From Arcobacteraceae bacterium (GTDB lineage Bacteria > Campylobacterota > Campylobacteria > Campylobacterales > Arcobacteraceae), in the NCBI GenBank assembly GCA_963678145.2, contig CAXXWH010000002.1, positions 1,150,063 through 1,214,062 on the forward strand: a DNA stretch of 64,000 nucleotides, given 5' to 3'. The notes below the pieces were generated by a model, which was given only the letters and a program-made list of their open reading frames with translations, was not told the origin of the DNA and ran no database searches. How positions within the stretch are numbered: the stretch's first letter is position 1; each line of letters starts with the position of its first letter. This document shows positions 6,419-48,416 of the stretch, piece after piece. The translations under genes and the position numbers were made by a program.

Positions 6419-7261
6419 ATGGAACAAATATTAAATACTATTAAAGAAGCAAGCATTGAGATCAAAAAAACTATCGAACTTGGAGATACCGGTAAAAGTG
6501 AACAGCAGAACTCTACAGGAGACACCCAACTTAAGCTTGATATAGCGAGTGACATAATTATTGAGAATGCATTTAAAAAAATAACTGATGTAAAAAGAAT
6601 AGTAAGTGAAGAACAGGATATAATAGTTGATATCAACGAAAACGGTAAATACCTGATAGCTTATGATCCCCTTGACGGAAGCAGCCTTGTTGACGTGAAC
6701 CTTTCGGTTGGTTCTATTTACGGTATATACAAAGAGGACTTTACGGGTAAGAATATAGTTGCTTCGGTTTATGTGGTTTTCGGTCCAAGAGTAGAGATGG
6801 TAATATGTGACGGGGAGAGCGTAAAACTTTACAGACTTCACAATGATCAATTTACATATGTGCAGGATATCAAGATGGATCAAAAAGGTATACTGAACTC
6901 TCCAGGATCAACCCAGCAGTGCTGGTATCCCCATCACAGACAAATGATAGAAGATATCTTCAGTGAAGACTATACTTTAACATACAGCGGCGGGATGGTT
7001 CCAGATCTTCACCATATCCTGGTAAGAGGGGGTGGACTTTTCTCATATCCCGGAGCCAGCGACAAACCGCAGGGAAAACTTAGACAACTCTTTGAAGTAT
7101 TCCCGTTCGCCCATATATTTGAAACAGCAGGCGGTGCGGCAACTAACGGGAAAGGAAGGGTTTTAGAAATAGAAACTACTCATATCCATGATACAAGCCC
7201 CTGCTTTTTTGGAAGCAATTACGAGATAAACAAAGTAATTGAGGCTTATAAAGAGCACTAA
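6419..7261 (+). CDS. fbp: Fructose-1,6-bisphosphatase class 1 (short Campylobacterota-type)
   Basis: 280 aa with the metal-binding motif DPLDGSS and FBPase-like sequence throughout. Starts 1 nt after the mobB stop. Confidence 0.9.
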
Positions 7262-30470: not shown

Positions 30471-31361
30471 TCACTCTGCGGATTCTGACTTGTTTCTTGA
30501 TAATATGTTTTGCACCTTTTCTTCGTTTAGTATTACTTTGAACTCATCCTCGTTCTCAATTTCGGGAATATACTGTTCGTTTAGTTCTATCGCTTTTTCA
30601 AGATCATCGATCGCATTTTCTATAAAGCCCAGTACGCTGTAGACTTTGGCTCTTTGGTAGAGTCCGTCTGCATACTCACCGTCTATGCTCAATGCCTGGT
30701 TTGTAAGGTTCAAGGCCCAGTTCGCCTCACCCATGTCAAGCACGGCATCTGCTTTGTAAATAATAGCCTCCACGTCATCTGGTCGAAGTTCCAGTATCTC
30801 GTTATATATATCTATCTTACCGCTCAGGGTGGTTTCTGAAGATGCTCTCATCCATAACGAGTGCATTGTATTTGTTTTTTCAATCTCTTTTTGGTTCTGA
30901 AGAACCTGCTTGGTTCTTTTTGCCAGGTCTTTCTCTACGATATCCATTCTTCCTTCATAATCATCGATAACTTTGGCAACTTTTTCATTTACTATATTGG
31001 TGATCTTTTCATTTATATCTTTTATGGAACCCCACCCAACAAGAACAAGCAGGGAAGTTGCGGCGGCAATAATATAGAACATATTGTTTATCGTGGAAGT
31101 GGCATAGTTAACAGCATTGTTTGTAAACTCGATCTCTTTTTTCGCCAGTATCTCGTGAATCTCTACTTTAAGTTCCCGGTTCTCGTCACGCAGCTGTTTT
31201 AGTTCATTTAAAATATAGTTTTCAACAAAGGGATTGTAAAGGGGCTTTTGCAGGGAGTCAAGCTTTTCTTGGATCTTCTGTTCTTTTGTATCATTTATAT
31301 CAATCTTTGAATCGGCATATATATTCAAAACCAGAAACAGAACTAAAAATAGTTTTTTCAT
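30471..31361 (-). CDS. TPR-repeat membrane protein (signal peptide, coiled coil, TM, TPR)
   Basis: 296 aa with a signal-like N-terminus, a central TM helix (MFYIIAAATSLLVLVGWGSI) and C-terminal TPR-like repeats (ALSIDGEYADGLYQRAKVYSVLGFIENAIDDLEKAIELN). The start overlaps the upstream gene by 4 nt. Confidence 0.65.
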   Translation of the reverse strand: MKKLFLVLFLVLNIYADSKIDINDTKEQKIQEKLDSLQKPLYNPFVENYILNELKQLRDENRELKVEIHEILAKKEIEFTNNAVNYATSTINNMFYIIAAATSLLVLVGWGSIKDINEKITNIVNEKVAKVIDDYEGRMDIVEKDLAKRTKQVLQNQKEIEKTNTMHSLWMRASSETTLSGKIDIYNEILELRPDDVEAIIYKADAVLDMGEANWALNLTNQALSIDGEYADGLYQRAKVYSVLGFIENAIDDLEKAIELNEQYIPEIENEDEFKVILNEEKVQNILSRNKSESAE

Positions 31362-31825
31362 TTAATTATCCTCATCTTTTTCATAATTTTTGTAGATGTT
31401 TTCGTATCAAATTTTTTTAAGATCTTCATAACCCTTTTGGTTTTTAATCTTATCAAGATATCGAAAACTTCATCAAGCTGCCCCTGTTTTATCATGCGCT
31501 CAAAAATATTAACAGCAACCTTTAATTTCATTTTATCATAAAGTTTTATAGTTTTGGTTACCTCTTCCCTGTTTATGCGGTCAAGTTTGTTTTGGCTTTG
31601 CTGTTTTATCTTTTCGTACTTTTTAAGTTCCTTTTGAAGTTTTGCATACTCTTTTTCAAGCTTCTGCTTTTTTTTTAGGTACTCAAGCTCTTTTGTTTCA
31701 TAAAATTCGTTCAGTTCATCTTTTACCTTTATAAGTTCCATCTTCTCTTTATAAAGATTTCCCTCTGGCATAACTATCGCAAAGGTGTATGAGAAAAGCA
31801 GCAAAAAAACTATCCCTTTTTTCAT
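31358..31825 (-). CDS. MotE-like / MgtE-N-like periplasmic protein
   Basis: 155 aa with a signal peptide, a Lys/Glu coiled coil, and a C-terminal segment (LYDKMKLKVAVNIFERM...ILKKFD) resembling MgtE_N/MotE-family proteins. Assignment is tentative. Confidence 0.5.
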   Translation of the reverse strand: MKKGIVFLLLFSYTFAIVMPEGNLYKEKMELIKVKDELNEFYETKELEYLKKKQKLEKEYAKLQKELKKYEKIKQQSQNKLDRINREEVTKTIKLYDKMKLKVAVNIFERMIKQGQLDEVFDILIRLKTKRVMKILKKFDTKTSTKIMKKMRIIK

Positions 31826-31832
31826 TGTGCCG

Positions 31833-33200
31833 CTACTCTTCTTTTTTTAACAGGCTTTCGTACAGTGTTTTAAGTGCCGCATCTGCAAGATTGGATGAGA
31901 TCCCAAGATGGAACGATATCTTTGAAGGGCTCATATCGAACATTTCAAATGACAGATTATTCTGCTTCAAAGCATTGATCGCATCTACTATTGCAAAAGT
32001 GTTCTCTTTTAACCCGATACCAACTATAGTTATAATAGAAAGGTTGTAAGTGATAAAAAGATTATCTGTTTTAAGCCTTTTTTCTATCTGTCTTCTTAGG
32101 TTGTTTATATCCCCTTTAAGATCTTCCTGCTCGACCAAAATAGCTATATCGTCTTTATCTGTAGGGTAATGATAAGTATTGATATTGAACTCGCCGAATA
32201 TCTTAAGAAGCTCTGCCGTAAACCCTATCTCGTCTGCAAGCATATCTTTCTGGATATGAATTGAAGCCATATTATCAAGCTTTGCGATCCCCACAAGATC
32301 TTCCATCGGCACCCTTTCATTAAGTATCATAGTACCTTCATGTTCGGGGTTGTTGGTGTTTCTTATATTAATGGGTATCTTGCTTTTTTTACAGTTTAAC
32401 ATAGCATTGAAATGAAATACGTTAAACCCTTTTGAGCTTAGAAGTCTTAACTCTTTGAATGTAAGCCTTGGAATAACATTGGCATCGCTTATGATCCTTG
32501 GATCGACTTCATATACACCGTTGGTATCTGTCCAGTTCTCGTAAAGGTCTGCATCAAGCGCGTATGCAAGTTCCCCTCCTGTAAGGTCTGAACCTCCCCT
32601 GCTCATAACGGCTATCTCATTATTCTGCGTCACTCCGTAAAACCCCGGGATCAGATAGATATCCGCATCTTTGAAATCAAATGTTTTTTCTACGTTATCA
32701 TAGGTTTTCGGCAGTACCTTGCCGTCCCTGAACTCTTCACTTAGAATAAACCCGAAATCCTCTGGAAGCATAAGTTTAACGTTAAGGTTTGATTTTTTCA
32801 TAAACTTTTCGATAACTTTTGCATTATAGTGTTCACCTCTTGAAAGGCAGTAAGCCTCAAGCTTTTCATCTTTCAGCTTCGTATTTTTAAGATCGTTCTT
32901 CAAGGACTCTATAATCTCTTTTTTCTGAACACCCAGATCATCGCAAAGTTTTTCAAACTTTTTAACAATAGCTTCAAAACTCTGTTTTGCACTTACGTCT
33001 ATAAACTGCTCCCCGAGATGTTTACCCTCTGTAGCAAAATTAAGTAAATGGTCTGTGATCTTCTGGTCGAAATCTTCGTCTCTACCAGGAGCCGATACGA
33101 CCACCACTTTTCTCTCTTTATCGCTTTTTACTATATCGATAACTTTTCTTATCTGGGAAGCATCCTTTACCGAACTTCCCCCAAATTTACATACTTTCAT
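31833..33200 (-). CDS. ask: Aspartate kinase (ect-cluster-associated, Ask_Ect-like)
   Basis: N-terminal KFGGSSV motif, amino-acid kinase fold and C-terminal ACT region. I prefer ATG 33200 (GAGGAAG RBS, MKVCKFGGSS) to the TTG at 33215 in the track. Confidence 0.9.
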   Translation of the reverse strand: MKVCKFGGSSVKDASQIRKVIDIVKSDKERKVVVVSAPGRDEDFDQKITDHLLNFATEGKHLGEQFIDVSAKQSFEAIVKKFEKLCDDLGVQKKEIIESLKNDLKNTKLKDEKLEAYCLSRGEHYNAKVIEKFMKKSNLNVKLMLPEDFGFILSEEFRDGKVLPKTYDNVEKTFDFKDADIYLIPGFYGVTQNNEIAVMSRGGSDLTGGELAYALDADLYENWTDTNGVYEVDPRIISDANVIPRLTFKELRLLSSKGFNVFHFNAMLNCKKSKIPINIRNTNNPEHEGTMILNERVPMEDLVGIAKLDNMASIHIQKDMLADEIGFTAELLKIFGEFNINTYHYPTDKDDIAILVEQEDLKGDINNLRRQIEKRLKTDNLFITYNLSIITIVGIGLKENTFAIVDAINALKQNNLSFEMFDMSPSKISFHLGISSNLADAALKTLYESLLKKEE

Positions 33201-33423
33201 TTTCTTCCTCTTCAAAAAGCCGGTTCAACTCTTTTAAAGTATCCTCAAGCTTTCTTGATACTTTTGTCATCTCCTGTGAAACGACACTAAATCTTCTGTT
33301 AGCTTCCCCTGTCGCTTTGGAAGCTTCAATATGGGCATTCAATGAGATAAAGCTTATCTCCTGGGAAATATCTCCCAACTGGTTTTGCACACTTTTTATT
33401 TTGCCGTTTGCCATATTATTCAC
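33187..33423 (-). CDS. 78-aa protein homologous only to the hairpin-tip segment of methyl-accepting chemotaxis proteins
   Basis: ISFISLNAHIEASKATGEANRRFSVVSQEMTKVSRKL aligns with the two MCPs in this window ([40 protein letters not shown]). The start overlaps the ectD stop by 8 nt and the end overlaps the ask start. Confidence 0.6.
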   Translation of the reverse strand: MNNMANGKIKSVQNQLGDISQEISFISLNAHIEASKATGEANRRFSVVSQEMTKVSRKLEDTLKELNRLFEEEENESM

Positions 33424-34303
33424 TTTCCATCGGCGTAAAATCCCGTAAAGATAGAAAATCAGCCCTTTTTTTTACCGCCCCGAAAGGCTTTAGAGGTTTG
33501 TTATGTACAGAGTTATAGACAAAAAAAGCGTTTGTTCTTGGAAATGGAGAGATATTGTCAGGGCTTCCGTGAAGTATATTGCCGTCGTGAATAACCAAAG
33601 TTCCGGCTTTTCCGTATGCTCCTTTGATCTCATAATCTTCCATAAACTCATCGATCACTTTTTTACTTGGGACACCGTATTCCTGATTTTTTAAAGATTT
33701 TTTATAATTATCTTCAGGAGTTTCGCCCCTGCAGGATACGTATTTTTTATGACTTCCTGGAATAAGGTACAAAGGGCCGTTGAATTCATTGTTATCAGTC
33801 AGCATTATCCATGCCGTCAAACATCTGCATCTTGGCAGCCCGTCCTCCGTATGCCAGGTCTCAAAATCACTGTGCCAGGGAAATGATCTGCCTTTGTAAG
33901 CGGGTTTTATATTTATTCTGCTGTGGTGCATATAAACATCCCCTCCCAGTATCTGCCGTACTTTATCCAATATCCGGGGATCTTTTGAAACTCTGTCAAA
34001 AAGCGTGCTGAAAAGGTGCTGGTTAAAAATCGTCCTCAGCTCGTTTGATTCCGGCTCCTGGATAAACTCCTCGTTTTGGATAAGAGCATCGTTGGATGCC
34101 ATGATCTGCACCTCTTGAAGCATCTCCTTCACCTCATCGCTTTTAAAAAGGTTCGGGAATAAAATAAAACCGTTCTCATCATAGTATTGTTTGGATATGT
34201 TATCTAAGCTGTCTTTACCGACCGATTTTTCGCTGAAAACCGTTCTGTCGCACCTTTGTATAATTTTTTCTTCCATCCCTCTAGACGGGTACAGGTCTTC
34301 CAT
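33416..34303 (-). CDS. ectD: Ectoine hydroxylase
   Basis: 295 aa containing the EctD signature FPWHSDFETWHTEDGLP and an N-terminal DLYPSR. Confidence 0.9.
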   Translation of the reverse strand: MEDLYPSRGMEEKIIQRCDRTVFSEKSVGKDSLDNISKQYYDENGFILFPNLFKSDEVKEMLQEVQIMASNDALIQNEEFIQEPESNELRTIFNQHLFSTLFDRVSKDPRILDKVRQILGGDVYMHHSRINIKPAYKGRSFPWHSDFETWHTEDGLPRCRCLTAWIMLTDNNEFNGPLYLIPGSHKKYVSCRGETPEDNYKKSLKNQEYGVPSKKVIDEFMEDYEIKGAYGKAGTLVIHDGNILHGSPDNISPFPRTNAFFVYNSVHNKPLKPFGAVKKRADFLSLRDFTPMESE

Positions 34304-34323
34304 ATATTCACTCCTTTTTAAAA

Positions 34324-34977
34324 TTATTGATTCTTTAGTCTATAACCCCTGTTTCTTACTGTCTCTATAAAATCTTTACTGAATCTGTCTCGTAGTTTTG
34401 ATCTGATCTGATTCATATTCACTTCGATAATATTGTCGCTTACCATCTCTGGATCTTCCCACAAGGCATAGATCAGTTCCTCTTTGGATATGGGAGGCCT
34501 GTTCTTGTTCTTGATAAGGTATGACAATATTTCGTAAGCTTTGCCTCTTATTTTTATCTGCTGATTATTATTGTCAATGATCTCCCTTTCTTTATGGTTC
34601 ACACCGAAATAATCGTTATAATAAAGCACCTCTTTAAAGTTATCCCTATGTATCGATTCTATCTTTGCCATAAAAAGATCCGTATCAAACGGCTTTTTTA
34701 TTACGCTTATAGCACCGTTTTTCAGTAACTTCAGTTCAAACTCTTTGGAGCTGTTATTTGTTACTATCACAAATGCAGTAATGGTGTTGAACGTTGTCTT
34801 AAGAAGAGAAAGACACTCTTTTAAAGAGTCGCTTTTTATCAAAACAAGATTATAAAACCTTACGCTTAAATGATATAAAGCATCGTCAAATTCCGTTACT
34901 TCATCTATAATATACTGGGAAACATCGTTAAATTGATCTAAGATATCATTTTCTATTCCGACTGATAATAATCTCAT
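34324..34977 (-). CDS. Atypical OmpR-family response regulator (degenerate receiver + winged-helix)
   Basis: 217 aa with a C-terminal trans_reg_C-like wHTH (LIYALWEDPEMVSDNIIEVNMNQIRSKL...VRNRGYRL). The receiver retains the conserved Lys (VIKKPF). The canonical acceptor position after beta-3 reads NLVLIKSD, not hhhhD, and the N-terminal acidic pair is degenerate. Confidence 0.75.
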   Translation of the reverse strand: MRLLSVGIENDILDQFNDVSQYIIDEVTEFDDALYHLSVRFYNLVLIKSDSLKECLSLLKTTFNTITAFVIVTNNSSKEFELKLLKNGAISVIKKPFDTDLFMAKIESIHRDNFKEVLYYNDYFGVNHKEREIIDNNNQQIKIRGKAYEILSYLIKNKNRPPISKEELIYALWEDPEMVSDNIIEVNMNQIRSKLRDRFSKDFIETVRNRGYRLKNQ

Positions 34978-34980
34978 GCT

Positions 34981-35283
34981 TTAAAGTTTTATCCTTTTTT
35001 GTTCGTTATCCTCAAAAGTAAGCAGAATATCATTTTGGCTTTGCAATATCTCTTTAACCAGACAAACCTCCATATCACCTTTGTCAATGAAAAACTTTTT
35101 TATGGTTTCCATTGCAAAACTTTTATCGGATTGCTCGTCAAGCTGTAATAATAAAGAATTATCGCTAAGAAGGATTTTCTGGTTTGTTACGTTGAAGTTT
35201 TTAAAACCTTTGATAAGGATGAAAAACTCGAGTTTCTCATCCCTTGAAATATCTAAATAATTCTTTATGTAGATAAAAGGCAT
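34981..35283 (-). CDS. Hypothetical protein (100 aa) embedded in the ect operon
   Basis: ORF packed 2 nt after the ectC stop and 3 nt before the regulator start. No recognisable motif. Confidence 0.5.
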   Translation of the reverse strand: MPFIYIKNYLDISRDEKLEFFILIKGFKNFNVTNQKILLSDNSLLLQLDEQSDKSFAMETIKKFFIDKGDMEVCLVKEILQSQNDILLTFEDNEQKRIKL

Positions 35284-35285
35284 TA

Positions 35286-35678
35286 TTAGTCCTCTAATGG
35301 ATATACACCGTTCTCATCATGATTTTCAGTTCCTTTGATAGGAGGATTGAATACACAGATAAGTCTCATATCTTCGCTTCCCCCGTAAAGGTTATGGTCA
35401 TCATGTTCGTTTAAGGCATACATTACGCCGTCGTAAATTTCGTGTACGACTCCTGTTTTAAGATCTTCTATTTTACCGTTTCCTGCTACACAGTATACTG
35501 CTTCAAGGTGATTTTGGTAGTGGATATGGGTCTTGGTATTTGCTTTAATGATCGTCTCGTGGAAAGAAAACCCCATGTTGTCATCTTTTAAAAGCATTCT
35601 TCTGCTTGTCCACTGCCCCTCGTGTGCATGTACCTCTTTTTCACTTCCTATAATATCTTTTATATCTCTTACTATCAT
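35286..35678 (-). CDS. ectC: L-ectoine synthase
   Basis: 130 aa cupin with EctC-typical sequence (MIVRDIKDIIGSEKEV...WTSRRMLLKDDNMGFSFHETII...). Confidence 0.95.
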   Translation of the reverse strand: MIVRDIKDIIGSEKEVHAHEGQWTSRRMLLKDDNMGFSFHETIIKANTKTHIHYQNHLEAVYCVAGNGKIEDLKTGVVHEIYDGVMYALNEHDDHNLYGGSEDMRLICVFNPPIKGTENHDENGVYPLED

Positions 35679-35682
35679 TTTA

Positions 35683-36963
35683 TTAAAACTCCTCGCTTAA
35701 TTTTTCTTTTTTGTCTTTAAATAACTTGTCTACAGCCGTTTCAAATCTTTTTAAACCTTCATTTAGGGTTTCCTCGTCGATAATAAGAGGCGGCAGGAAT
35801 TTAACTACCTGTCCGTCGCTACCGCAGGTTTCAATAATAAGGTTCTCTTTAAATGCATATTCCGAGATTTCGCCCGCTATTGTTTTGTCGTCTTTGATCT
35901 CAAACCCGTATGCAAGTCCTCTACCTCTTACTTCAATAGTATAAGTATCGGCATGCTTTTTTGCGATTTTTTCCAAAGTCTCTTTTAATACCTTCTCTTT
36001 GTACTTAACAGCATTGCTAAGGTCATCATTCTGCCAATAGTTTTCTAGACTTACTTTTGAAGCTACGAATGCAAGATTGTTACCTCTGAATGTTCCCGTA
36101 TGCTCACCCGGTTTCCATTGGTCAAGATCAGGCTTGAACAATAATATCGCCATAGGAAGACCCCCTCCTATTGATTTTGAAAGTGTTACCATATCAGGAT
36201 TGATCCCTGCAAACTCGAATGAGAAAAACTCACCGCTTCTACCGTTACCAACCTGGATATCATCTATGATCAATAAGATATCGTACTCTCTACAAATAGA
36301 TTCTAACTCTTGAAGCCATTTTGCACTTGATACATTTATACCACCCTCACCCTGGATAGTTTCAACGATAACCGCTGCAGGAATATCAACACCGCTGCTT
36401 CCGTCATCTAAGAATTTTCTGAAATACTCTAAAGTGTTCCAGTCACCGAAATAACCGTCAAACGGCATAAATGTAGCGTTACATCTGCTGATGTAGCTTT
36501 CATCCCTGTATTCGTTGTTACCCGTTACTGCAAGTGATCCTTGAGATAAACCGTGGTAACCGTTTGTAAATGAAACAACATTTGATCTTCCTTTTACAAG
36601 TCTTGCAAGTTTTAAAGCCGTTTCAACTGCATTGGTTCCTGTAGGCCCTGTGAACTGTATCTTGTATTCAAGGTTTCTTGGTTTTAAAATAAGGTTTTCA
36701 AAAGTTTGAAGGAACTCTTTTTTTGCAGTGGTAGCCATATCAAGACCGTGAACAACACCGTCACTTTTTAAATACTCGATCAATGCTTCACTTATAGCTT
36801 CATTATTGTGACCGTAGTTAAGTGTCCCCGCACCTGCAAAGAAATCGATATATTCAACATCCTGTTCATCTGTTAATATTGCACCTTTTGCTTTTGTAAA
36901 AATCGTAGGGAAGCTTCTTATATAACCCCTAACTTCCGATTCTAAGTTCTCAAATATTCTCAT
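35683..36963 (-). CDS. ectB: Diaminobutyrate--2-oxoglutarate transaminase
   Basis: 426 aa class-III aminotransferase with N-terminus FENLESEVRGYIRSFP and the PLP-Lys region (TLSKSIGGGLP). Confidence 0.95.
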   Translation of the reverse strand: MRIFENLESEVRGYIRSFPTIFTKAKGAILTDEQDVEYIDFFAGAGTLNYGHNNEAISEALIEYLKSDGVVHGLDMATTAKKEFLQTFENLILKPRNLEYKIQFTGPTGTNAVETALKLARLVKGRSNVVSFTNGYHGLSQGSLAVTGNNEYRDESYISRCNATFMPFDGYFGDWNTLEYFRKFLDDGSSGVDIPAAVIVETIQGEGGINVSSAKWLQELESICREYDILLIIDDIQVGNGRSGEFFSFEFAGINPDMVTLSKSIGGGLPMAILLFKPDLDQWKPGEHTGTFRGNNLAFVASKVSLENYWQNDDLSNAVKYKEKVLKETLEKIAKKHADTYTIEVRGRGLAYGFEIKDDKTIAGEISEYAFKENLIIETCGSDGQVVKFLPPLIIDEETLNEGLKRFETAVDKLFKDKKEKLSEEF

Positions 36964-37454
36964 TTATTTTCCTTTTTTAATTTTATTTCATACAATACTT
37001 CATCTTCATGGGCATTGTTAAAGTCGCTTACTTCAAACATTGTTTCACTTGATATCTCACCCTCAATGTTTTGGGTAAGTTTTTCAAATAATCTTTGTGA
37101 AGATTTGTTGCTTGGGCTGATTGTAGTATGGATCTTTGTGATATCAGCCATGTTTTTTCTGGACAGGATCTCGTTGATCAGCCTTTGGGCTATCCCTTTT
37201 CCTCTGAAGTTTTCATCGACGGCTACCTGCCATACAAAAAAAACATCGTTTAATGTAGGATGAATATACCCCGAAACGAAACCTATGATCTTTTCATTTT
37301 CAACTGCTACACCGCAGCAATCTTTGAAATGGGTAGACTGCAGTAAATAAAGATATTCAGAATTTACATCTAAAATCTTTGTACTTTTTACAAGATTATA
37401 GATATGTTTCGCATCATTTTTATTTGGTTTTCGTAATATTATGTCAAAAGACAT
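36960..37454 (-). CDS. ectA: L-2,4-diaminobutyric acid acetyltransferase
   Basis: 164 aa GNAT (QVAVDENFRGKGIAQRL). First gene of ectABC order with an AAGGAG RBS. Overlaps ectB by 4 nt. Confidence 0.9.
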   Translation of the reverse strand: MSFDIILRKPNKNDAKHIYNLVKSTKILDVNSEYLYLLQSTHFKDCCGVAVENEKIIGFVSGYIHPTLNDVFFVWQVAVDENFRGKGIAQRLINEILSRKNMADITKIHTTISPSNKSSQRLFEKLTQNIEGEISSETMFEVSDFNNAHEDEVLYEIKLKKENK

Positions 37455-37464
37455 TAATCTCCTT

Positions 37465-37524
37465 TTACATTTTTATGTAATATTTTTACATCATTAATGT
37501 AAAATATTTACATATTTCATGTAC
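37465..37524. promoter_or_regulatory. Three phased palindromic operator-like sites TTACAT-N4/5-ATGTA(A/C) upstream of ectA
   Basis: IR1 37465-37480 (TTACAT TTTT ATGTAA). IR2 37486-37502 (TTACAT CATTA ATGTAA). IR3 37508-37524 (TTACAT ATTTC ATGTAC). Start-to-start spacing is 21-22 bp. IR1 begins 11 nt from the ectA ATG, abutting the RBS. Confidence 0.6.
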
Positions 37525-37693
37525 AATATAACAGACTTATCTTAATATAAAGTTAATGATATTGGTTAAATTACACTAAAATATGTATTATTAAATACAA
37601 ATATTAATCTATTTAATATCATTATATGTGTTTATAAATTTCCTATTTTTAGAAAAAAATAAATTAAAAAACGAATTTTAAACATTGCGGGGG

Positions 37694-37699
37694 TATAAT
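37694..37699 (+). promoter_or_regulatory. Candidate -10 box (TATAAT) for the divergent MerR-family gene
   Basis: Perfect TATAAT 32 nt upstream of the TTG start, with an AAGGA RBS at 37722-37726. Confidence 0.45.
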
Positions 37700-37730
37700 T
37701 GCGTTTAATAAAACAAACTAAAGGACTACA

Positions 37731-38075
37731 TTGGCTTTATTAGATAATGAAAAAGATATTTTACCGTTAAGTTCAATCGCAGAATTGTTAACTGCAAAGA
37801 TTAGAACCCTTAAAATGTACGAAGATAAAGGGCTTCTCCCAAAGAAAAGCGAAGTATCGTCAAAGAAACTTTACTCCATAAATGATGTTAAGCTTATAGC
37901 GTTCACCCATTACCTGGCAAGTGTAAAAAAAATAAACGCAAACGGGATAAAATATATTCTGGAAATGCTTGAAAATAATATGGATGAAAAGAACCGTTAT
38001 GAATTCCTTGATATTGTTGAAGAAAAGATGGAAAAACTTTCAGGAATTGATGTAAAAGATGTAGAGGTTATCTAA
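37731..38075 (+). CDS. MerR-family transcriptional regulator (short, 114 aa)
   Basis: N-terminal MerR-type HTH pattern (LSSIAELLTAKIRTLKMYEDKGLLPKK....KKLYSINDVKLIAF). TTG start. Divergent from ectA. Confidence 0.75.
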   Translation: MALLDNEKDILPLSSIAELLTAKIRTLKMYEDKGLLPKKSEVSSKKLYSINDVKLIAFTHYLASVKKINANGIKYILEMLENNMDEKNRYEFLDIVEEKMEKLSGIDVKDVEVI

Positions 38076-38261
38076 TTTTTTACAATTTTATAGTATAAAT
38101 GTAACTATTTGTAAAGACTTTGTAAAGAAATACTCAAAGCCTTGATTAAATCTTTTATAAATAACAATAAATCTCTATAATAATACTAAGAAGCTGTCCG
38201 ACATCTCTTTTAAAATTGTCATGTCAAATGGCGGGCAGCTCTTTTCTTATCTCTTAGAACC

Positions 38262-40490
38262 CTAAAATCTTTTTTCGTTAACGACACGCTCGATCTCTTT
38301 TGAGATATTATCCATTTCTACTGCCGCTTTATTGGCCTGCGTTGCAATACTGGCATTCTGCTGTGTCTGGTGATCAAGTGACGTGATGGCGTCATTTATC
38401 TGTATAATACTGTTCTGCTGCTGCTTACTGGATGTCTCAACATCTTTTATAAGTTTCATGGTACTGTTTATCTTCTCGATAAGTTTATTATACCCCTCTA
38501 TCATATCGTCAGATATTGTTTTACCCTCATTGGCTTTATCCGCAGCATTTTGAACAAGTGTTTTTATTTCATTTGCTGCTTCTGCTGATCTGCTTGCCAG
38601 GTTTCTAACCTCCTGAGCAACAACTGCGAACCCTTTACCCGCTTCCCCTGCAGTCGCGGCTTCAACAGCAGCATTAAGAGAAAGGATGTTTGTCTGGAAG
38701 GCGATCTGGTCAATCACGGTAATCGCTTCATTGATCGCGGAAACCTCATTATTTATATTATCCATTGAAGAAGTTGTTTTCTGGGCCAAATGCTGCCCCT
38801 CGGAAGAGACCTGTATCAGCTCGGAAGAGAATCCGGACATAATATTTATATTCTCGGTGCTTTTCTTGATATTGTTTGTTATCTCGTCAACAGCAGCCGA
38901 CGTTTCTTCCAAAGATGTCGCTGCATGGTTAGAGTTTTTGCTTAAGGTGTCGACATTTTCAAGCAGTACTGAAGAGTTGTTCTTTAATATCTCCCCCTGG
39001 TTTCTGTTTTCGGTTAACATTGAGACTATAGAATCCCTTAGGGCATTGATACCCTCTATTAACTCTTTGTATTCGCCTGAAATTTTATTGTTCATGGGAA
39101 TAGAACTGCTGTAATCGTATTTTGCATATTGTCCCAATACTCTTAATATATCCCGGAAAAGCTCCTGCTGTACGTCCATTGTCTCATTTACTATGTTTAC
39201 GAAGGTCTGCACCTGCGGTGTAGAAGCCGGATTCTGGATCCTGTACGACAACCCGCCTGTCTGCATTTTGTTAAGGGTCAAGATAGTTTCCCCCGCACAC
39301 AACATATCAAGCTCTGTTGACTCGTTTACTATTTTAACGTTTTCGTTGACCATATCCGCAAGGCGGCAGAATTCATCCGTTCCTTTCAGGCTTATTGGTT
39401 CAAACTCGTTATTCTTTCTTTCAAGATAACTTACAAATCCCAAAATACCGCCGTAAATCTTTTGGGTAGAACTGGTAACATTATAATAGATAAAGTGTGC
39501 AATGGCATTGGTTAAGATAACAAGCAGTATCAATCCTGCCGTTAGTGTATAAAAAACAGTATTTTTTTCATCAAGAAGAATAGATGTTTTTTCCAAAATA
39601 GTTCCGGATATGGCATCATCGACCTTTTTCAGAAGCTCTATTTTTTTTGTGATCACATCAAACCAGTAAGTGGGTTCGGCACTAAGGGTATTGGCAAGTA
39701 TCTCAGCTTCTATCCTTTTTACCTCTTGTATCGCCGAGCCTTTTACCGTGTTTTTATAAATATCTATAAACTTATTATCGGCCAGGGTAATAAACTCCTT
39801 CATATATGTATCCTGCACCACTTTTAACAAATGAAATTTATGGTGAAGACTAAGATCTTTGCTTGCAAGCATATTTGACCCTACTGCCCTTTGAATTCCC
39901 GCTCTTTCCTTACTCATAAGGAAATTGTAATAAGCAAGAATATCTCTTGATATCTCTTTCTCCTGAATATTTTTTATCGCCTGGGGAATTATACCTAAAA
40001 GCTTGCCGTTAATGGAAGTGTAATACCCAAGAGCGTCTTTAAGTTCTATGTTCAAACTGCTTACGTTTTTTCTCGTGGAAGAGAGTTTTTTGAATCTTGA
40101 AAGTACATCATCTATTACGGGAACTATCTCTTTATCGATATCCCCCTTCTGCATTTCAGACACCAGTGAAGTAAACTCTTCAAGCCTTTTATTCGTAAGT
40201 TCTCTTTGGGAAGAGAGCTTGTTTGCGAATTTTTTCCCTTTGCTTCCAAGATATCCGGCACTCATACCTCTTTCTTTCTGGGTTTCATGGATCAGAAGCG
40301 ATATACTTGATGAAAGCATCATTGTATTGTTGAGCTTTTGATATTCTTCTTTCTTTTCATAATTCTCGTAAATGTAAAAAGTGGATAACAATACCATCAA
40401 GGACATGGGTATAACGATCAGCAATACAAGTTTAATTCGGATGTTTAGATTATTTACAAACGGAAGATTATATTTAAGCGGATTTATCAT
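38262..40490 (-). CDS. Methyl-accepting chemotaxis protein with periplasmic NIT (nitrate/nitrite-sensing-type) domain
   Basis: 742 aa. TM1, a NIT-like region ([23 protein letters not shown]...), TM2, and an MCP signalling domain with the conserved tip ([37 protein letters not shown]). Confidence 0.9.
38561..38711 (-). repeat. Inverted-repeat copy 1 (MCP signalling-tip coding segment)
   Basis: About 150 nt, roughly 90 percent identical by eye to 47859-48009 on the opposite strand, including a 27-nt perfect run (caggaggttagaaacctggcaagcaga). Confidence 0.7.
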
Positions 40491-40494
40491 GATA

Positions 40495-40896
40495 CTACTC
40501 CTCCTCTTTCATTTGAGTATAGAGTTTTTCATACTTCTCTATCTCTTTTCGGGAAGCTTTTCTTCTGCAGGAAATATAACCTTTTGAACCGTCCGAAGAA
40601 CTATAGGGAAATACTGTTGCAAAGACCCAGTAGAATTTGCCGCTTTTTGTTTTGTTCTTGACAAAACCTCTCCATCTTTGCCCTTTTTTCACCGTACTCC
40701 AGAGATCTGCAAAAGCGGCTTTTGGCATATCGGGATGTCTTACGATATTATGGGGATTGCCCACAAGCTCATCCAGCTCATACTCTGCATAACGGCAGAA
40801 GTCGTCATTTGCAAATTTGATTATACCTTTTTCGTCAGTTTCGGAGACCAGGAAAGATTTATCATCCAAGATCAGTTCATTTTGTATAATTTCCAT
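40495..40896 (-). CDS. Aer-like FAD-type PAS domain protein (stand-alone, CetB-like)
   Basis: 133 aa. [45 protein letters not shown] closely matches the Aer PAS-FAD region. The stop is 4 nt before the MCP ATG, with a GGAGGAG RBS inside its 3' end. Confidence 0.85.
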
Positions 40897-40968
40897 ACGA
40901 TATACCCTCCAGCTTGCGGTTAATTGTATATTATATGATTTATTGCTTAAAAATATAATAAAAAATTA

Positions 40969-42567
40969 TTAGATTATTATATTTAAAACCTCTTTGGTGC
41001 TTATGTTGTTTTCAACAATTATATTAGTGATCCCAAGCTCCGATATATACTCTTTTTCAGTATTGGTATGCACTTTTACTATAATCCTCTCTGTTGATAT
41101 ATATTTTTTAAGTATATGACAGATATGGTGCAGTTTTTTCGGGTTGTCTACAGCTACTACTATATTTCTGGCCATATTTACATTTGTATGTTTAAGTATC
41201 TCTTTTTTAAGCGCGTTACCGAATATCACCGGTTCATTCAGGTCTTTTACTTTTTTAAATGTTTCAAGATTATTTTCAACCGCTATGTAGGGCAGGTATT
41301 CGCTCTTAAGAACTTTTGCGACATTTTGCCCGAACTCCCCGAAACCTATAATAATAGTATGATCGGAATAATCATCTGTTTCGGTATTTTTCTCAAAACC
41401 GTCTTCATCAACTTCTTTTATAAATTTACCTGCAATACCTGAAAGATTTTTCAAAATAACAGGAGTTGCAATCATAGAAATAACGATCGTTACGATCATC
41501 ACCTGCCCGTAAGGAGGACCTATAAGATCATTTGATCTTGCAAGCTCCAAAAGCGCAAGGGAAAATTCCCCTATCTGCACAAGGCTCAGTGCAGTTTTCA
41601 AGGATGTTTTCCTGTTCTCGTCCATTTTTATTATCGCATATATTATAGTAAATTTCACAACCATAACTGCAGCTAAAAGCATAATTATTATATGTATATA
41701 CTCAAATATAATACTAAAATCTATCTGCATTCCCACCGTTATGAAGAATATACCAAGCAGCAGGTCCCTAAACGGGATAAGATCCGCTTCTACCTGATGT
41801 TTGTATTTTGTCTCGGCTATAAGCATACCTGCTATAAAAGCCCCTAAAGAGTAAGAGAACCCCAGTATATGTGCTAAGTATGAAGCACCTATTGCCAAAA
41901 ACAGTATCGTACCTATAAAAAGTTCATCGGAATCTGTTTTTATGATCTGGTTGAAAAAAGGCTCAAGAAGATACTTGCCGAATACCCACAGCAGCGCAAG
42001 CAGAACTGCCGCACTTATGAACATCTCAAAAAGAACTGCAGAGATATCCTGAGTATCCTGATTACTCATAAAACCTATTATAAGCAGAATAGGGATTACC
42101 GCTATATCCTGCATTATCAAAATACCAAGACTTCTTTGCCCGTACCTCCTGCTTATCTCCCCTGTTTCATTAAATGTTTTAAGCACGATGGCAGTTGATG
42201 AAAGGGCAATGGCAAGGGAGATTATAAAAGAAACCTGCTGCTGTATACCAAAGATATAGTATGCCATAAGATATACAGTAAGAGAGGTTAATCCTATCTG
42301 CAATGCACCTGCCACGAATACCTCGTATTTCATCTTTTTCAGATGAGCCAAAGAGAACTCAAGACCGATAGTGAACATCAAAAATACCACACCAAACTCT
42401 GCGATCTCTTTAAGTTCATGGTTATGAACCATATCGTGAAGCCCGAAACCGTAAGCTATTACGGTACCGGTTACTATATACCCTATTATTGTAGGTAGGT
42501 GAAACTTTTTTAATACAATATTAATAACAAGGGATAAAAAAAGCGTGGTAACAATGATTGTCAACAT
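40969..42567 (-). CDS. CPA2-family cation:proton antiporter with C-terminal TrkA-N/RCK domain (Kef-type)
   Basis: 532 aa with a polytopic N-terminal Na_H_Exchanger-like domain, then a Rossmann motif (IIIGFGEFGQNVAKVL). Confidence 0.85.
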   Translation of the reverse strand: MLTIIVTTLFLSLVINIVLKKFHLPTIIGYIVTGTVIAYGFGLHDMVHNHELKEIAEFGVVFLMFTIGLEFSLAHLKKMKYEVFVAGALQIGLTSLTVYLMAYYIFGIQQQVSFIISLAIALSSTAIVLKTFNETGEISRRYGQRSLGILIMQDIAVIPILLIIGFMSNQDTQDISAVLFEMFISAAVLLALLWVFGKYLLEPFFNQIIKTDSDELFIGTILFLAIGASYLAHILGFSYSLGAFIAGMLIAETKYKHQVEADLIPFRDLLLGIFFITVGMQIDFSIIFEYIHIIIMLLAAVMVVKFTIIYAIIKMDENRKTSLKTALSLVQIGEFSLALLELARSNDLIGPPYGQVMIVTIVISMIATPVILKNLSGIAGKFIKEVDEDGFEKNTETDDYSDHTIIIGFGEFGQNVAKVLKSEYLPYIAVENNLETFKKVKDLNEPVIFGNALKKEILKHTNVNMARNIVVAVDNPKKLHHICHILKKYISTERIIVKVHTNTEKEYISELGITNIIVENNISTKEVLNIII

Positions 42568-42571
42568 CTAT

Positions 42572-43861
42572 TTAAGCTTTCTTCTTGCTAACTCTGTTTA
42601 TAAGCATCACACCTATCGTGGCTGCAACAAACGAAGCTATGAATATCCCAAGTTTAACCGCACTGATAAGACTCTCTTCCATAAAGGCTAGGTGGGTTAT
42701 GAATATGGACATCGTAAAACCTATACCGCCTATGAAACCGACTGCGATTATCTCTTCCCAGCTAAGGTTGTCAGGCTTGTGGATAAGCTTCATTTTCGTA
42801 GCAAAATAGGTGAATCCGAATATCCCGATAGGTTTCCCCAGTACCAGACCGAATACAACCCCAAGTACCACCATAAGGTGCTGTGAAACGGAACTGAAAT
42901 CTATTACAACCCCCGCATTGGCAAAGGCAAACAGCGGCATAATGAAAAATGCACTGAATCCGTGCAGCTGGTGTTCCAGTTTTACAAGTGGATTTTGAAC
43001 CTTGTCGTAACCGTATGCTATATTCTCCAGAGCATCTATCTGGTGATGGTTAAGGATCGGAACCTCGTCTATATTCTTTTCAAACTCCTCCACCGCTTTT
43101 TTACTGTTTTGGATAAAATCTTTCTCCTCTATCTTTGAACTGATAGGAATCGCAAAAGCAAGCAGTACACCGGCTATAGTGGCATGAATACCTATTGCAT
43201 GGATATATACCCATAAGAATATCCCGAGGATCAGATAAGGCCAAAGTGATTTAACCCCTTTTAGGTTCAATATCCAGATAAGGGCATAGATCAAGATCGC
43301 ATGGAGGAAATATGCAGTATGTATTTCATTTGTATAAACAGTTGCAACCACTAATACCGCACCAAGGTCGTCAACCACCGCCAGTGCCACAAGGAAAAGT
43401 TTCAATGCCGGATTTACCTTGTTCCCAAGAAGAAGCAAAATACCAAGGGCAAATGCTATATCCGTAGCCATAGGGATACCGAATCCGATAGGATCTTCAG
43501 TATTAAGCCCTACATAGATCAATGCAGGGACCACCATTCCCCCTACTGCAGCAAAAACAGGGAATGATGCCTTTTTTACCGATGAAAGTTCACCTATTAA
43601 CATTTCCCTTTTTATCTCTAATCCCACCATTAAGAAGAACAGGGCCATCAAGCCGTCGTTTATCCACATGGTAAGGCTCATGGATATATCATGGGAGCCG
43701 AACGTTATTCCAAGAGGCATACTCCATAAATCATAATACTCCTGCGAAAATGAAGAGTTTGCAACCACTACTGCTAAAATAGTAGCACTGAAAAGTAAGA
43801 AACCACTGAATGCTTCCTTACTTATAAAATCTTGAAAGGTCTCAATATACCTTGACATCAA
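42572..43861 (-). CDS. nhaA: Na+/H+ antiporter NhaA
   Basis: 429 aa with NhaA-typical sequence, including the VVDDLGAV (DD) motif and the N-terminus FISKEAFSGFLLF. Confidence 0.95.
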   Translation of the reverse strand: MMSRYIETFQDFISKEAFSGFLLFSATILAVVVANSSFSQEYYDLWSMPLGITFGSHDISMSLTMWINDGLMALFFLMVGLEIKREMLIGELSSVKKASFPVFAAVGGMVVPALIYVGLNTEDPIGFGIPMATDIAFALGILLLLGNKVNPALKLFLVALAVVDDLGAVLVVATVYTNEIHTAYFLHAILIYALIWILNLKGVKSLWPYLILGIFLWVYIHAIGIHATIAGVLLAFAIPISSKIEEKDFIQNSKKAVEEFEKNIDEVPILNHHQIDALENIAYGYDKVQNPLVKLEHQLHGFSAFFIMPLFAFANAGVVIDFSSVSQHLMVVLGVVFGLVLGKPIGIFGFTYFATKMKLIHKPDNLSWEEIIAVGFIGGIGFTMSIFITHLAFMEESLISAVKLGIFIASFVAATIGVMLINRVSKKKA

Positions 43862-46346: not shown

Positions 46347-46502
46347 GGCCCAGATTTTAACAAAATCAATTTGTAAATAGCTTTAAGAGTAAAATTAACA
46401 GTTCCGAAACTTTCTATTTTTTCACTAAAATACAAAAATTTATTACTTTGTTAGAATAATTATAATAAAATAATATAATAAATAATTAAAATGAGGACCT
46501 AT

Positions 46503-48416
46503 ATGTTCAAAAACCTTAAAATAAGCACCAAACTAAATCTTAACCTTGCCATTATAATCATCGGGCTGATAATAGCCGCTATTACTTCTTTTACAGTTAT
46601 AAACTCTTTATCCCAAGAGTATAAACACTCCGTGAAAACCGCAAAAAAAACAGACCTGCTCAAATCGATATTCCTGGGAGGACTTTTATACAATTCATCT
46701 TCAGGTGTAGTATTTCAAAATCCAAATTCGCAAAAAGCTAAAAACACAATGAAATCCGCCATATCACAGGTAGACCGATATTATAAGGAGTTTTCAAAGC
46801 TTGATAAAAAACTCTCCATGCAGATATCGGGAAAAGTACAAAACTTTAAAACCACAGCCTCCTCTCTTCAGAAAAAAGCCGCTTCGGGAGAGAAGCTGAC
46901 AAAAGATGATATGAAAACCTCTTTACAAAAATGGAGAGAGCTGAAATTCGAGATCATGGAACACCTTGAGGTACTCAAAAAAGAATCAGCAAGCTCCATA
47001 GAGCACTATGATAACTTGATTGACGATTCATTGGTATTTATCGTTACAAGCATCATTATAGCTGCTATTATTCTTATTATATTCAATATGCTTCTTATAA
47101 AAAGTATCACTACTCCTCTGCATGTCCTGCAAAATGCGATGAAAGCTCTAAGCAACCAGTCCAAGGACAGCAATCAGAAAATAAATAACATTGCAAAAGA
47201 TGAAACCGGAGATATAGCAAACTCTTTCAACAACTTCATAGAGAAGATCCATATCCAGGCTCTTGAGGATGAAAAAGTTATAAAGAACGTCCGGGAAGTT
47301 GTTGAACAGATAAAAAAAGGGAATCTAAGTACAAGGGTAACTACATCTACAACAAACCCTGCAATTATGCACCTTGTTGAGTCACTCAACAGTATGCTTA
47401 CAATACTGCACGAAACAATAGAGCATTCACTTCAGGTTCTTCACCAGTACCAAAACCAAAATTTCACCTCAAAAACAGATATGAGATGCGAAGGGGAAAC
47501 GGCACAGCTAATGGAGGGTATAAACTCTCTTGGTTCCGAGATATCATCCATGCTTGTGACCAGTAATCAAAGAGGTCTTCATTTGCAAAAAAGTTCAATC
47601 GAACTTCTTGAAAATATGGATATATTAAACAAAAGTACCAATGAAGCGGCGGCATCACTGGAAGAAACCGCTGCGGCTCTTGAGCAGATCACCCAAAACG
47701 TAAACCAGAACAATACCAACGTACAAGAGATGTCCAAATATGCCAATGAGGTTATCAATTCCGCAAAACTCGGACAGGAGCTTTCAACCCAGACCGATAA
47801 TGCCATGGATGAGATCAATAATGAAGTAACATCTATCAACGAGGCCATAACCATTATCGACCAGATAGCGTTCCAGACAAATATCCTTTCACTCAATGCT
47901 GCTGTTGAAGCGGCAACTGCTGGTGAAGCGGGTAAAGGTTTCGCAGTTGTTGCGCAGGAGGTTAGAAACCTGGCAAGCAGAAGTGCAGAAGCAGCAAACG
48001 AGATAAAAAAACTAGTAGAAACAGCAAAACACAAAGCAGACAGCGGTAAGGAAGTGGCATTTAAAATGACGCAAGGGTATGAGAAGCTTTATGAGAATAT
48101 AAACGGAACAATAGAGCTTATCTCAAATGTCGAACAGGCAAGCCTGCACCAGCAGCAGGCGATAAGCCAGGTAAACGACGCAGTTAACCTGCTGGACAAG
48201 CAGACACAGAACAATGCTTCCGTAGCCGCACACACCGATACCATTGCAGATCAGACAAATAAAATATCAAACCAGATAGTTGCAGATACACAGTCTAAAC
48301 AGTTTATAGGCAAGAATGAGCCTTCACAAAACGACCAGACCTCTGAAAATAAAAAAACAAAAAAAGAAACAGATAGTACAAAAGATGATATAAAAGATGA
48401 ATGGGAGAATTTTTAA
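46503..48416 (+). CDS. Methyl-accepting chemotaxis protein (helical-bundle periplasmic sensor, HAMP, MA domain)
   Basis: Two TM segments flank a helical periplasmic region of about 150 aa, followed by the conserved MCP tip. I prefer ATG 46503 (GAGGA RBS) to 46491. Confidence 0.9.
47859..48009 (+). repeat. Inverted-repeat copy 2 (MCP signalling-tip coding segment)
   Basis: Partner of 38561-38711 in the opposite orientation. See that entry. Confidence 0.7.

Follow-up and report, generated by a model that had tools for sequence, protein, structure and literature searches.

A gene for a free-standing chemoreceptor hairpin tip in ectoine clusters of Arcobacteraceae

What might the tip of a chemoreceptor be doing, by itself, among the genes for making ectoine? 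The question is raised by a 64,000-nucleotide stretch of DNA (the window) from contig CAXXWH010000002.1 of an Arcobacteraceae bacterium, whose minus strand carries, in this order, ectA, ectB, ectC, a gene here called hyp100, the gene of an OmpR-type regulator, ectD, a very small gene and ask. The small gene (the mini-gene, encoding the mini-protein) specifies a chain resembling the hairpin tip of methyl-accepting chemotaxis proteins (MCPs). A preliminary description of the locus, made from the DNA letters and their translations, had noticed the resemblance and offered several guesses about function; what follows examines the resemblance, the gene, the residues that it has kept and lost, and the partners that it might have.

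A hairpin tip as a complete protein

The mini-protein matches the Pfam MCPsignal profile (PF00015) with E=2.2e-7 and 31.3 bits, its residues 7-72 aligning with profile positions 33-97 of 172. The score falls just below the gathering score of the profile (34.6 bits) because only 65 of the 172 positions, about a third of the domain, exist in the mini-protein; a precomputed PF00015 match is on record for most of its relatives. NCBIfam matches all lie at the hairpin of named receptors (the Tar, Tap and Aer2 tips; for example, residues 358-421 of the 553 of Tar), and BLASTP against an MCP of the window gives 34% identity over 56 amino acids (E=8e-8), the sole gap being one extra residue at the turn. 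When a profile of the mini-protein family was run exhaustively against 1.8 billion representative proteins, it retrieved 10,947 of them at E<=1e-3; the family itself aside, nearly every one is a full-length MCP in which the match lies at the tip, with single-tip MCPs reaching E values of about 1e-12. Sequence search of the PDB yields MCP tips exclusively (E=1e-8), among them engineered tip fragments of Thermotoga maritima Tm14, 85-90 amino acids long (3UR1_C, 4JPB_B). The similarity noticed in the preliminary description is beyond chance, and other stand-alone tips exist (about 20, of 66-80 amino acids). The tip sequence that had been quoted from the two MCPs of the window is exact in each. 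The alignment offered with it needs correction: the pairing of ISF with IAF is three residues out of register, and the N-terminal arm aligns ungapped.

For the single chain, AlphaFold2 (supplied with a 19-sequence family alignment) predicts a two-helix hairpin, residues 2-33 and 36-74, with a mean predicted local distance difference test score (pLDDT) of 93.2. The predicted turn, residues 34-35, falls at a GE(x)G motif and aligns with Tsr 389-390. Foldseek finds the Tsr tip (6S1K_E) as the best PDB match to this model, with a template modelling score of 0.84 and a root-mean-square deviation of 1.6 Å; the weak E-value (0.048) reflects how generic helical hairpins are. The hairpin is the whole chain: Pfam matches no input module (ligand-binding, transmembrane, HAMP or PAS) in the mini-protein, and with arms of about 30 residues and 75 amino acids in total there is no long four-helix coiled coil with adaptation helices. 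The absence of transmembrane, sensor, HAMP and methylation-helix parts, as first described, is borne out by the model, which consists of two helices, and by the other Pfam matches, which are weak, sub-threshold and to unrelated helical families.

Convergence among coiled coils, rather than common descent, is a known source of false MCPsignal matches, and HMMER may over-score coiled coils (PMC3695513). As an account of the mini-protein it is not tenable, and we regard it as hardly conceivable, because the match is anchored on a specific tip motif (LNAxIEAxxAxGExGxxFxVVxxE) and the predicted turn coincides with that of Tsr. Moreover, the match always lies at the hairpin of the target, and the reverse search with the family profile returns nearly only MCPs. 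Sequence comparison and structure prediction together make a solid case that the mini-protein is homologous to the hairpin tip of MCPs and to nothing else. The mini-gene descends from this membrane-distal tip, the protein-interaction region of an MCP, the rest of the receptor having been lost. Databases label mini-proteins 'methyl-accepting chemotaxis protein'; the label is misleading, for the mini-protein can neither sense nor be methylated.

The open reading frame (ORF) first described, 33187..33423 on the minus strand between ectD and ask, is present and has 78 codons when counted from a GTG at 33423. The likelier start is the ATG at 33414, which is the start in public gene calls and has an equivalent Met in all homologues; the protein would then have 75 residues and begin MANGK (Table 1). 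A Shine-Dalgarno-like GGAAAG, inside the 3' end of ectD, lies 8 nt before this ATG and abuts the GTG directly. The ectD stop codon (TAA, 33416-33418) is followed by a single spacer base and then by the ATG of the mini-gene, so that the 8-nt overlap with the ectD stop, which had been proposed on the unlikely GTG start, is gone. The 14-nt overlap of the mini-gene with the start of ask is as first described. The same overlap is found at two other loci (L002, L003), while spacers of 2, 12 or 20 nt separate the genes elsewhere, and the overlap suggests that translation of mini-gene and ask is coupled. A scan of 31000-38300 for promoters and terminators gave counts at chance level, which do not inform on the limits of the operon, and an Rfam scan of the ect cluster gave no credible match.

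Table 1. Positions in the window of the mini-gene, its signals and the genes around it
Feature	Position	Strand	Basis or remark
Mini-protein coding sequence	33187..33414	-	75 aa, public gene call P0001; homologue of the MCP hairpin tip only
Shine-Dalgarno-like GGAAAG	33423..33428	-	read from the sequence
Overlap of mini-gene 3' end and ask start, ATGAAAGTATGTAA	33187..33200	-	14 nt
ask, aspartokinase	31833..33200	-	455 aa from ATG 33200; AA_kinase + ACT; NCBIfam PRK09034, 426 bits
ectD, ectoine hydroxylase	33416..34303	-	TIGR02408, 319 bits
Atypical OmpR-family response regulator	34324..34977	-	degenerate receiver; Trans_reg_C 67 bits, Response_reg only 18.5 bits
hyp100	34981..35283	-	100 aa, no Pfam match; always paired with the response regulator; predicted ferredoxin-like fold
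ectC	35286-35678	-	ectoine biosynthesis, head of the gene string
ectB	35683-36963	-	ectoine biosynthesis, head of the gene string
ectA	36960-37454	-	ectoine biosynthesis, head of the gene string
Full-length NIT-domain MCP	38262..40490	-	adjoins the ect cluster; reference for the canonical tip of the host
Second full-length MCP	46491..48416	+	HAMP + MCPsignal; tip identical to that of the first MCP

The homologues retrieved by word-indexed searches, all distinct, fall into two subfamilies, typified by LNAHIEASKAxGEAGRRFS (the window protein and its relatives, with an extra residue in the turn) and by INARIEASKS-GEDGKKFSVIAEEM. The subfamilies are only 35-40% identical to each other, yet 12 alignment columns are invariant over both. 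The reading frame is maintained in sequences whose stop codons are independent and whose junctions with ask differ. In three pairs with unsaturated synonymous sites, the ratio of non-synonymous to synonymous substitution rates (dN/dS) is 0.03, 0.14 and 0.10; the first of these pairs, L004/L005, differs by 8 synonymous changes and 1 non-synonymous change. By this pattern of substitution the mini-gene is a genuine gene under purifying selection, in keeping with the earlier suggestion that it is translated and no relic. It is short, is often lost and scores below the Pfam threshold, as might be expected of a decaying MCP remnant, or of an ORF that serves only as a spacer, coupling the translation of ask to that of ectD, and whose peptide has no function. 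On the other hand, selection at the amino acid level and a frame intact across about 20 diverged sequences disfavour both, the invariant columns speak against them, and a spacer ORF is not needed, since clusters that have no mini-gene join ectD to ask across a gap of 16-37 nt. A relic or spacer is therefore very improbable.

Other departures from the usual receptor architecture came to light as well. The pattern-scan matches L007-L017 were rejected as stand-alone tips, being full-length MCPs or multidomain proteins; two of them, from Planctomycetota metagenome-assembled genomes (L007, L009), are ORFs of 392 amino acids in which a tip-like segment close to the N-terminus precedes an unrelated domain at the C-terminus, which is unusual for an MCP-related sequence. 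Three database proteins of 158-309 amino acids (P0009, P0011, P0012) contain two or three tandem copies of an MCP tip motif with no other MCP parts, another non-canonical tip-only architecture.

Contact residues and the case for the receptor array

To place its residues, the mini-family (19 members) was mapped onto Tsr numbering (the letters of the Tsr tip that was used agree with all Tsr residues named in PMC13098124) and compared with 93 full-length MCP tips found among matches to the family profile, a sample that leans to mini-like tips. Eight positions are invariant in 19 of 19 members: N381, A382, I384, E385, A386, 388 (Lys for the Arg of Tsr), F396 and E402. In receptors, N381 is a key trimer-contact residue, E385 and R388 form an interdimer salt-bridge pair at the trimer axis, and F396 stacks across the dimer interface (PMC6681711). 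Position 384 contacts CheW and the P5 domain of CheA, and E402 is a CheW-suppressor position (PMC13098124). A382 and A386 are invariant or nearly so in the MCP sample. Residue 384 is Val in Tsr and Ile in 97% of the sampled MCPs; its equivalent in Thermotoga maritima is I142, mutation of which abolishes CheA binding (PMC13098124). Positions 377, 380 and 398 remain hydrophobic in the mini-family; that a soluble protein of 8 kDa retains three or four hydrophobic residues at its surface points to a protein-protein interface like that of the receptor. (The common MCP tip of these Arcobacteraceae loci has Thr at the position of salt-bridge residue R388 of Tsr.)

The reading preferred here, to which a probability of roughly 0.4 is given, is that the mini-protein is a tip mimic, co-expressed with the ectoine enzymes under salt, that would modulate the chemoreceptor arrays. 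Its steps would be as follows. The invariance of the dimer-stacking F396 suggests that two chains pair into a four-helix bundle like the tip of a receptor dimer. The place of the mini-gene in the ectABC(-regulators)-ectD-mini-ask string, with its stop-start or overlapping junctions, implies that the mini-protein would be made together with the ectoine enzymes, translationally coupled to Ask, and would be most abundant under salt stress. The face of the N-terminal helix, which in receptors provides the trimer contacts and the docking sites of CheW and CheA-P5 and which is largely retained, would bind a component of the array (CheW, CheV, CheA-P5 or the receptor tips), and this binding would tune or dampen chemotactic signalling during osmoadaptation. 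Since the tip is altered rather than faithful, its choice of partners is probably not the same as theirs in the host receptors. The more specific proposal, that the free 8-kDa tip enters receptor trimers or sequesters CheW or CheV and so couples osmoadaptation directly to chemotaxis, is doubtful.

Modulation of the array is made plausible by several pieces of background. Tip-only fragments can dock CheW and CheA: 3UR1 and 4JPB are Tm14 tip fragments reportedly co-crystallised with CheA (P4P5) and CheW. Over-production of cytoplasmic fragments of the Tsr tip jams chemotaxis, and motility is commonly repressed at high osmolarity. The receptor tip is bound strongly by CheW, which out-competes CheA (PMC13098124).

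Other observations weigh against an action on the array. Ten positions are invariant in the MCP sample (N381, A382, E385, G390, G393, G395, F396, V399, E402 and L406). In the mini-family, five of them (N381, A382, E385, F396 and E402) are invariant too, G390 and G393 are mostly kept (393 is Asn in the window protein) and L406 is variable; position 403 is always Met. G395, which is Gly in 93 of 93 sampled MCPs, is always Arg or Lys in mini-proteins; A383, at which CheA-P5 can be crosslinked, has become His, Arg or Tyr; Gln or Asn stands at 373, and Thr or Ser at 404. The subfamily of the window carries the one-residue insertion in its turn. The tips of full-length MCPs are identical over more than 40 residues in four lineages (the window, L004, L006 and L018), while the mini-protein is just 34% identical to the MCP tip of its host and 57% identical between the window and L004, implying that it is not under the full constraint of an array member. 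This divergence from the host tip and the changes at MCP-invariant residues make a faithful decoy of the host receptors unlikely. The genomic setting adds to the count: the sole constant neighbour of the mini-gene is ask and not a chemotaxis gene, no che gene is found in the ect cluster or among the 20 larger ORFs of the window that were scanned, and the mini-gene is absent from 21 of 22 evaluable related clusters.

Neighbours, rival partners and patchy distribution

Besides the window, 15 of 15 distinct loci inspected have the mini-gene directly upstream of ask (loci with this arrangement include L001-L006, L018, L021, L024, L030 and L050-L053), and all mini-gene loci examined are Arcobacteraceae-type ectABC(D)-ask clusters. 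The gene string of the window recurs in four Arcobacteraceae metagenome-assembled genomes of a species-representative set and in several metagenome contigs (L002-L006, L021, L051, L053). An MCP gene does not consistently accompany the mini-gene clusters, there being none in the flanks of L003, L021 and L024. Other loci vary the string. In L024-26 and L052, ectD is absent, with regulator, mini-gene and ask kept; L050 has ectABCD, mini-gene and ask with neither hyp100 nor regulator in the cluster; in L018-20 the hyp100-regulator pair lies 6 kb downstream and the mini-gene is still between ectD and ask. These ectD-less, pair-less and pair-relocated variants leave ask as the only invariant neighbour. 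EctD, which had been suggested as a partner, is disfavoured by the clusters that lack its gene and keep the mini-gene.

The constancy of ask directs attention to its product. A dimer of the hairpin, made in a ratio to Ask that translational coupling would fix, might bind this ectoine-specific enzyme and, under salt stress, alter how active, how sensitive to feedback or how stable it is. The mini-gene stays by ask when ectD is gone, when the pair is missing and when the pair has moved 6 kb away, and the two genes either overlap or are set apart by 2-20 nt. Small protein partners are able to control enzymes with the amino-acid-kinase fold, as PII does NAGK; no precedent is known for an aspartokinase regulated by a helical hairpin. 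Adjacency is nonetheless weak evidence, since the operon is compact and deletions are the only events observed. Co-adaptation of Ask to the mini-gene was sought and rejected: no column of the Ask alignment separates clusters that have the mini-gene from clusters that do not, and in 21 clusters that lack the mini-gene the identity of Ask falls in the same range (70-78%). Finally, an action on Ask leaves the invariance of the receptor trimer- and CheW-contact residues unexplained. It is considered unlikely.

The mini-protein might instead bind the OmpR-like regulator, hyp100 or both, and tune ect transcription as an anti-activator or co-sensor. Alignment of its receiver shows that the regulator has no conserved phospho-acceptor Asp and must be controlled in another way, and the pair is found in or near the cluster at most mini-gene loci. 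However, L050 has ectABCD, mini-gene and ask without the pair, many clusters carry the pair without the mini-gene, and in L018 the pair has moved off, the mini-gene remaining with ask. Nor is hyp100 like CheW: it was considered as a CheW-like partner within the cluster and rejected, its AlphaFold2 model (pLDDT 92) being a ferredoxin-like domain, with weak Foldseek matches to HMA, ACT and RAM modules, and not an SH3-like barrel. A role of the mini-protein in this regulation is quite improbable. What probability remains beside the array, Ask and the regulator belongs to functions not yet envisaged.

The hyp100-regulator pair is of interest in its own right. It is much more widespread than the mini-gene, occurring in the ect clusters of the window (34324-35283, minus strand) and of L003-L006, L018, L021, L024, L027, L031, L036, L044 and L051-L053, and probably regulates ect genes independently of phosphorylation, possibly by sensing a ligand; no description of it was found. 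In L018-L020 the place held elsewhere by the pair, between ectC and ectD, is taken by a different ORF of 78 amino acids (6843-7079) with no Pfam match on record. A further candidate ect regulator, a MerR/HspR-like protein of 114 amino acids, is encoded divergently upstream of ectA (37731-38075, plus strand); L002 and L018-20 have a weak MerR-family gene of 112-114 amino acids upstream of ectA, and L003 and L004 have unannotated ORFs that resemble it in size and orientation. The surroundings farther upstream are salt-related (38262-43861, minus strand): the NIT-domain MCP, then a Na+/H+ exchanger with a TrkA-N domain and an NhaA-type antiporter. Directly downstream of ask are two genes overlapping by 4 nt (30471-31825, minus strand), for a lysine-rich helical protein of 155 amino acids with a signal-like N-terminus and a tetratricopeptide-repeat protein of 296 amino acids; this arrangement is common to L002 only.

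How regularly do related clusters carry the mini-gene? A metagenome collection was scanned with the Ask protein of the window, a choice blind to the mini-gene, and gave 23 loci whose Ask identity (70-78%) spans the range of the mini-gene-bearing loci; the mini-gene was then sought in all six frames by tblastn and with a hidden Markov model of the family. It is present in only one (L030, where the contig end truncates it), and one other locus is not evaluable. In the remaining 21, ask comes right after ectD, the regulator gene or ectC, across a gap of 16-68 nt, or the upstream sequence holds no mini-gene. The expectation of conservation in related ect clusters is accordingly upheld only where the gene is present, and fails for nearly all of the clusters found through Ask. 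When Ask is placed in a neighbour-joining tree (one without support values), clusters that have the mini-gene are interspersed with clusters that do not, and its two subfamilies track the two Ask clades, which fits one early gain followed by several later losses and suggests repeated loss in related lineages. The mini-gene is an accessory, lineage-restricted gene that is dispensable for the ect cluster and not part of its core.

Comparison with known systems

Chemoreceptor tips are among the most conserved of bacterial signalling surfaces, and a natural tip-only protein under selection in an operon for salt stress would offer a probe, ready for use, of how arrays assemble. If the mini-protein does modulate the array, it may provide a direct link between osmoprotection and motility; if it acts on Ask or on the atypical regulator, it would show plainly that the receptor-tip fold has been taken over for an unrelated function. 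What is new in either event is that a receptor tip, though narrowly distributed, exists by itself as a protein that evolves independently within a metabolic stress operon. Literature on ectoine and Arcobacter, on ectABCD and MCPs, and on truncated chemoreceptors yielded no description of the mini-gene, and we know of no endogenous tip mimic that inhibits chemosensory arrays.

Among genes of ectoine clusters, the accessory genes ask_ect, ectR and mscS, as listed in the review of Czech et al. 2018 (PMC5924519), offer a parallel: the mini-gene is likewise embedded in the cluster, probably co-expressed with it, lineage-restricted and optional. Unlike them, it has no evident metabolic or transport role. 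Term searches of that review brought up no gene within a biosynthetic ect cluster that derives from a chemoreceptor or encodes a response regulator.

With the hairpin tip of MCPs (E. coli Tsr ~367-420; PDB 1QU7, 6S1K) the mini-protein has in common homologous sequence, the same predicted antiparallel hairpin with its turn at the same place, and the invariant residues N381, A382, E385, A386, F396 and E402, 388 being Lys in place of Arg. It differs in size, with about 30 residues in each arm where the shortest receptor classes have at least 84; in lacking methylation sites, the glycine hinge, HAMP and the membrane and sensor parts; and in evolving much faster than the tips of the host receptors.

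Split or soluble chemoreceptors are familiar in Campylobacterota: CetA/CetB, Tlp7 (Cj0951c/Cj0952c) and TlpD. They belong to the same bacterial group and likewise spread receptor functions over separate polypeptides. They keep a full-length signalling domain with adaptation helices, however, whereas the mini-protein is the terminal hairpin, through which no sensor signal could be transmitted.

The nearest counterparts are engineered. The Tm14 tip pieces in 3UR1 and 4JPB are of comparable size and come from the same receptor region as the mini-protein, and they make clear that a hairpin consisting of the tip alone is able to fold, to dimerise and to dock CheW and CheA-P5. The Tm14 and Tsr fragments are laboratory truncations of working receptors, with unaltered contact residues; in contrast, the mini-protein is the product of a natural and independently evolving gene whose contact residues have been altered.

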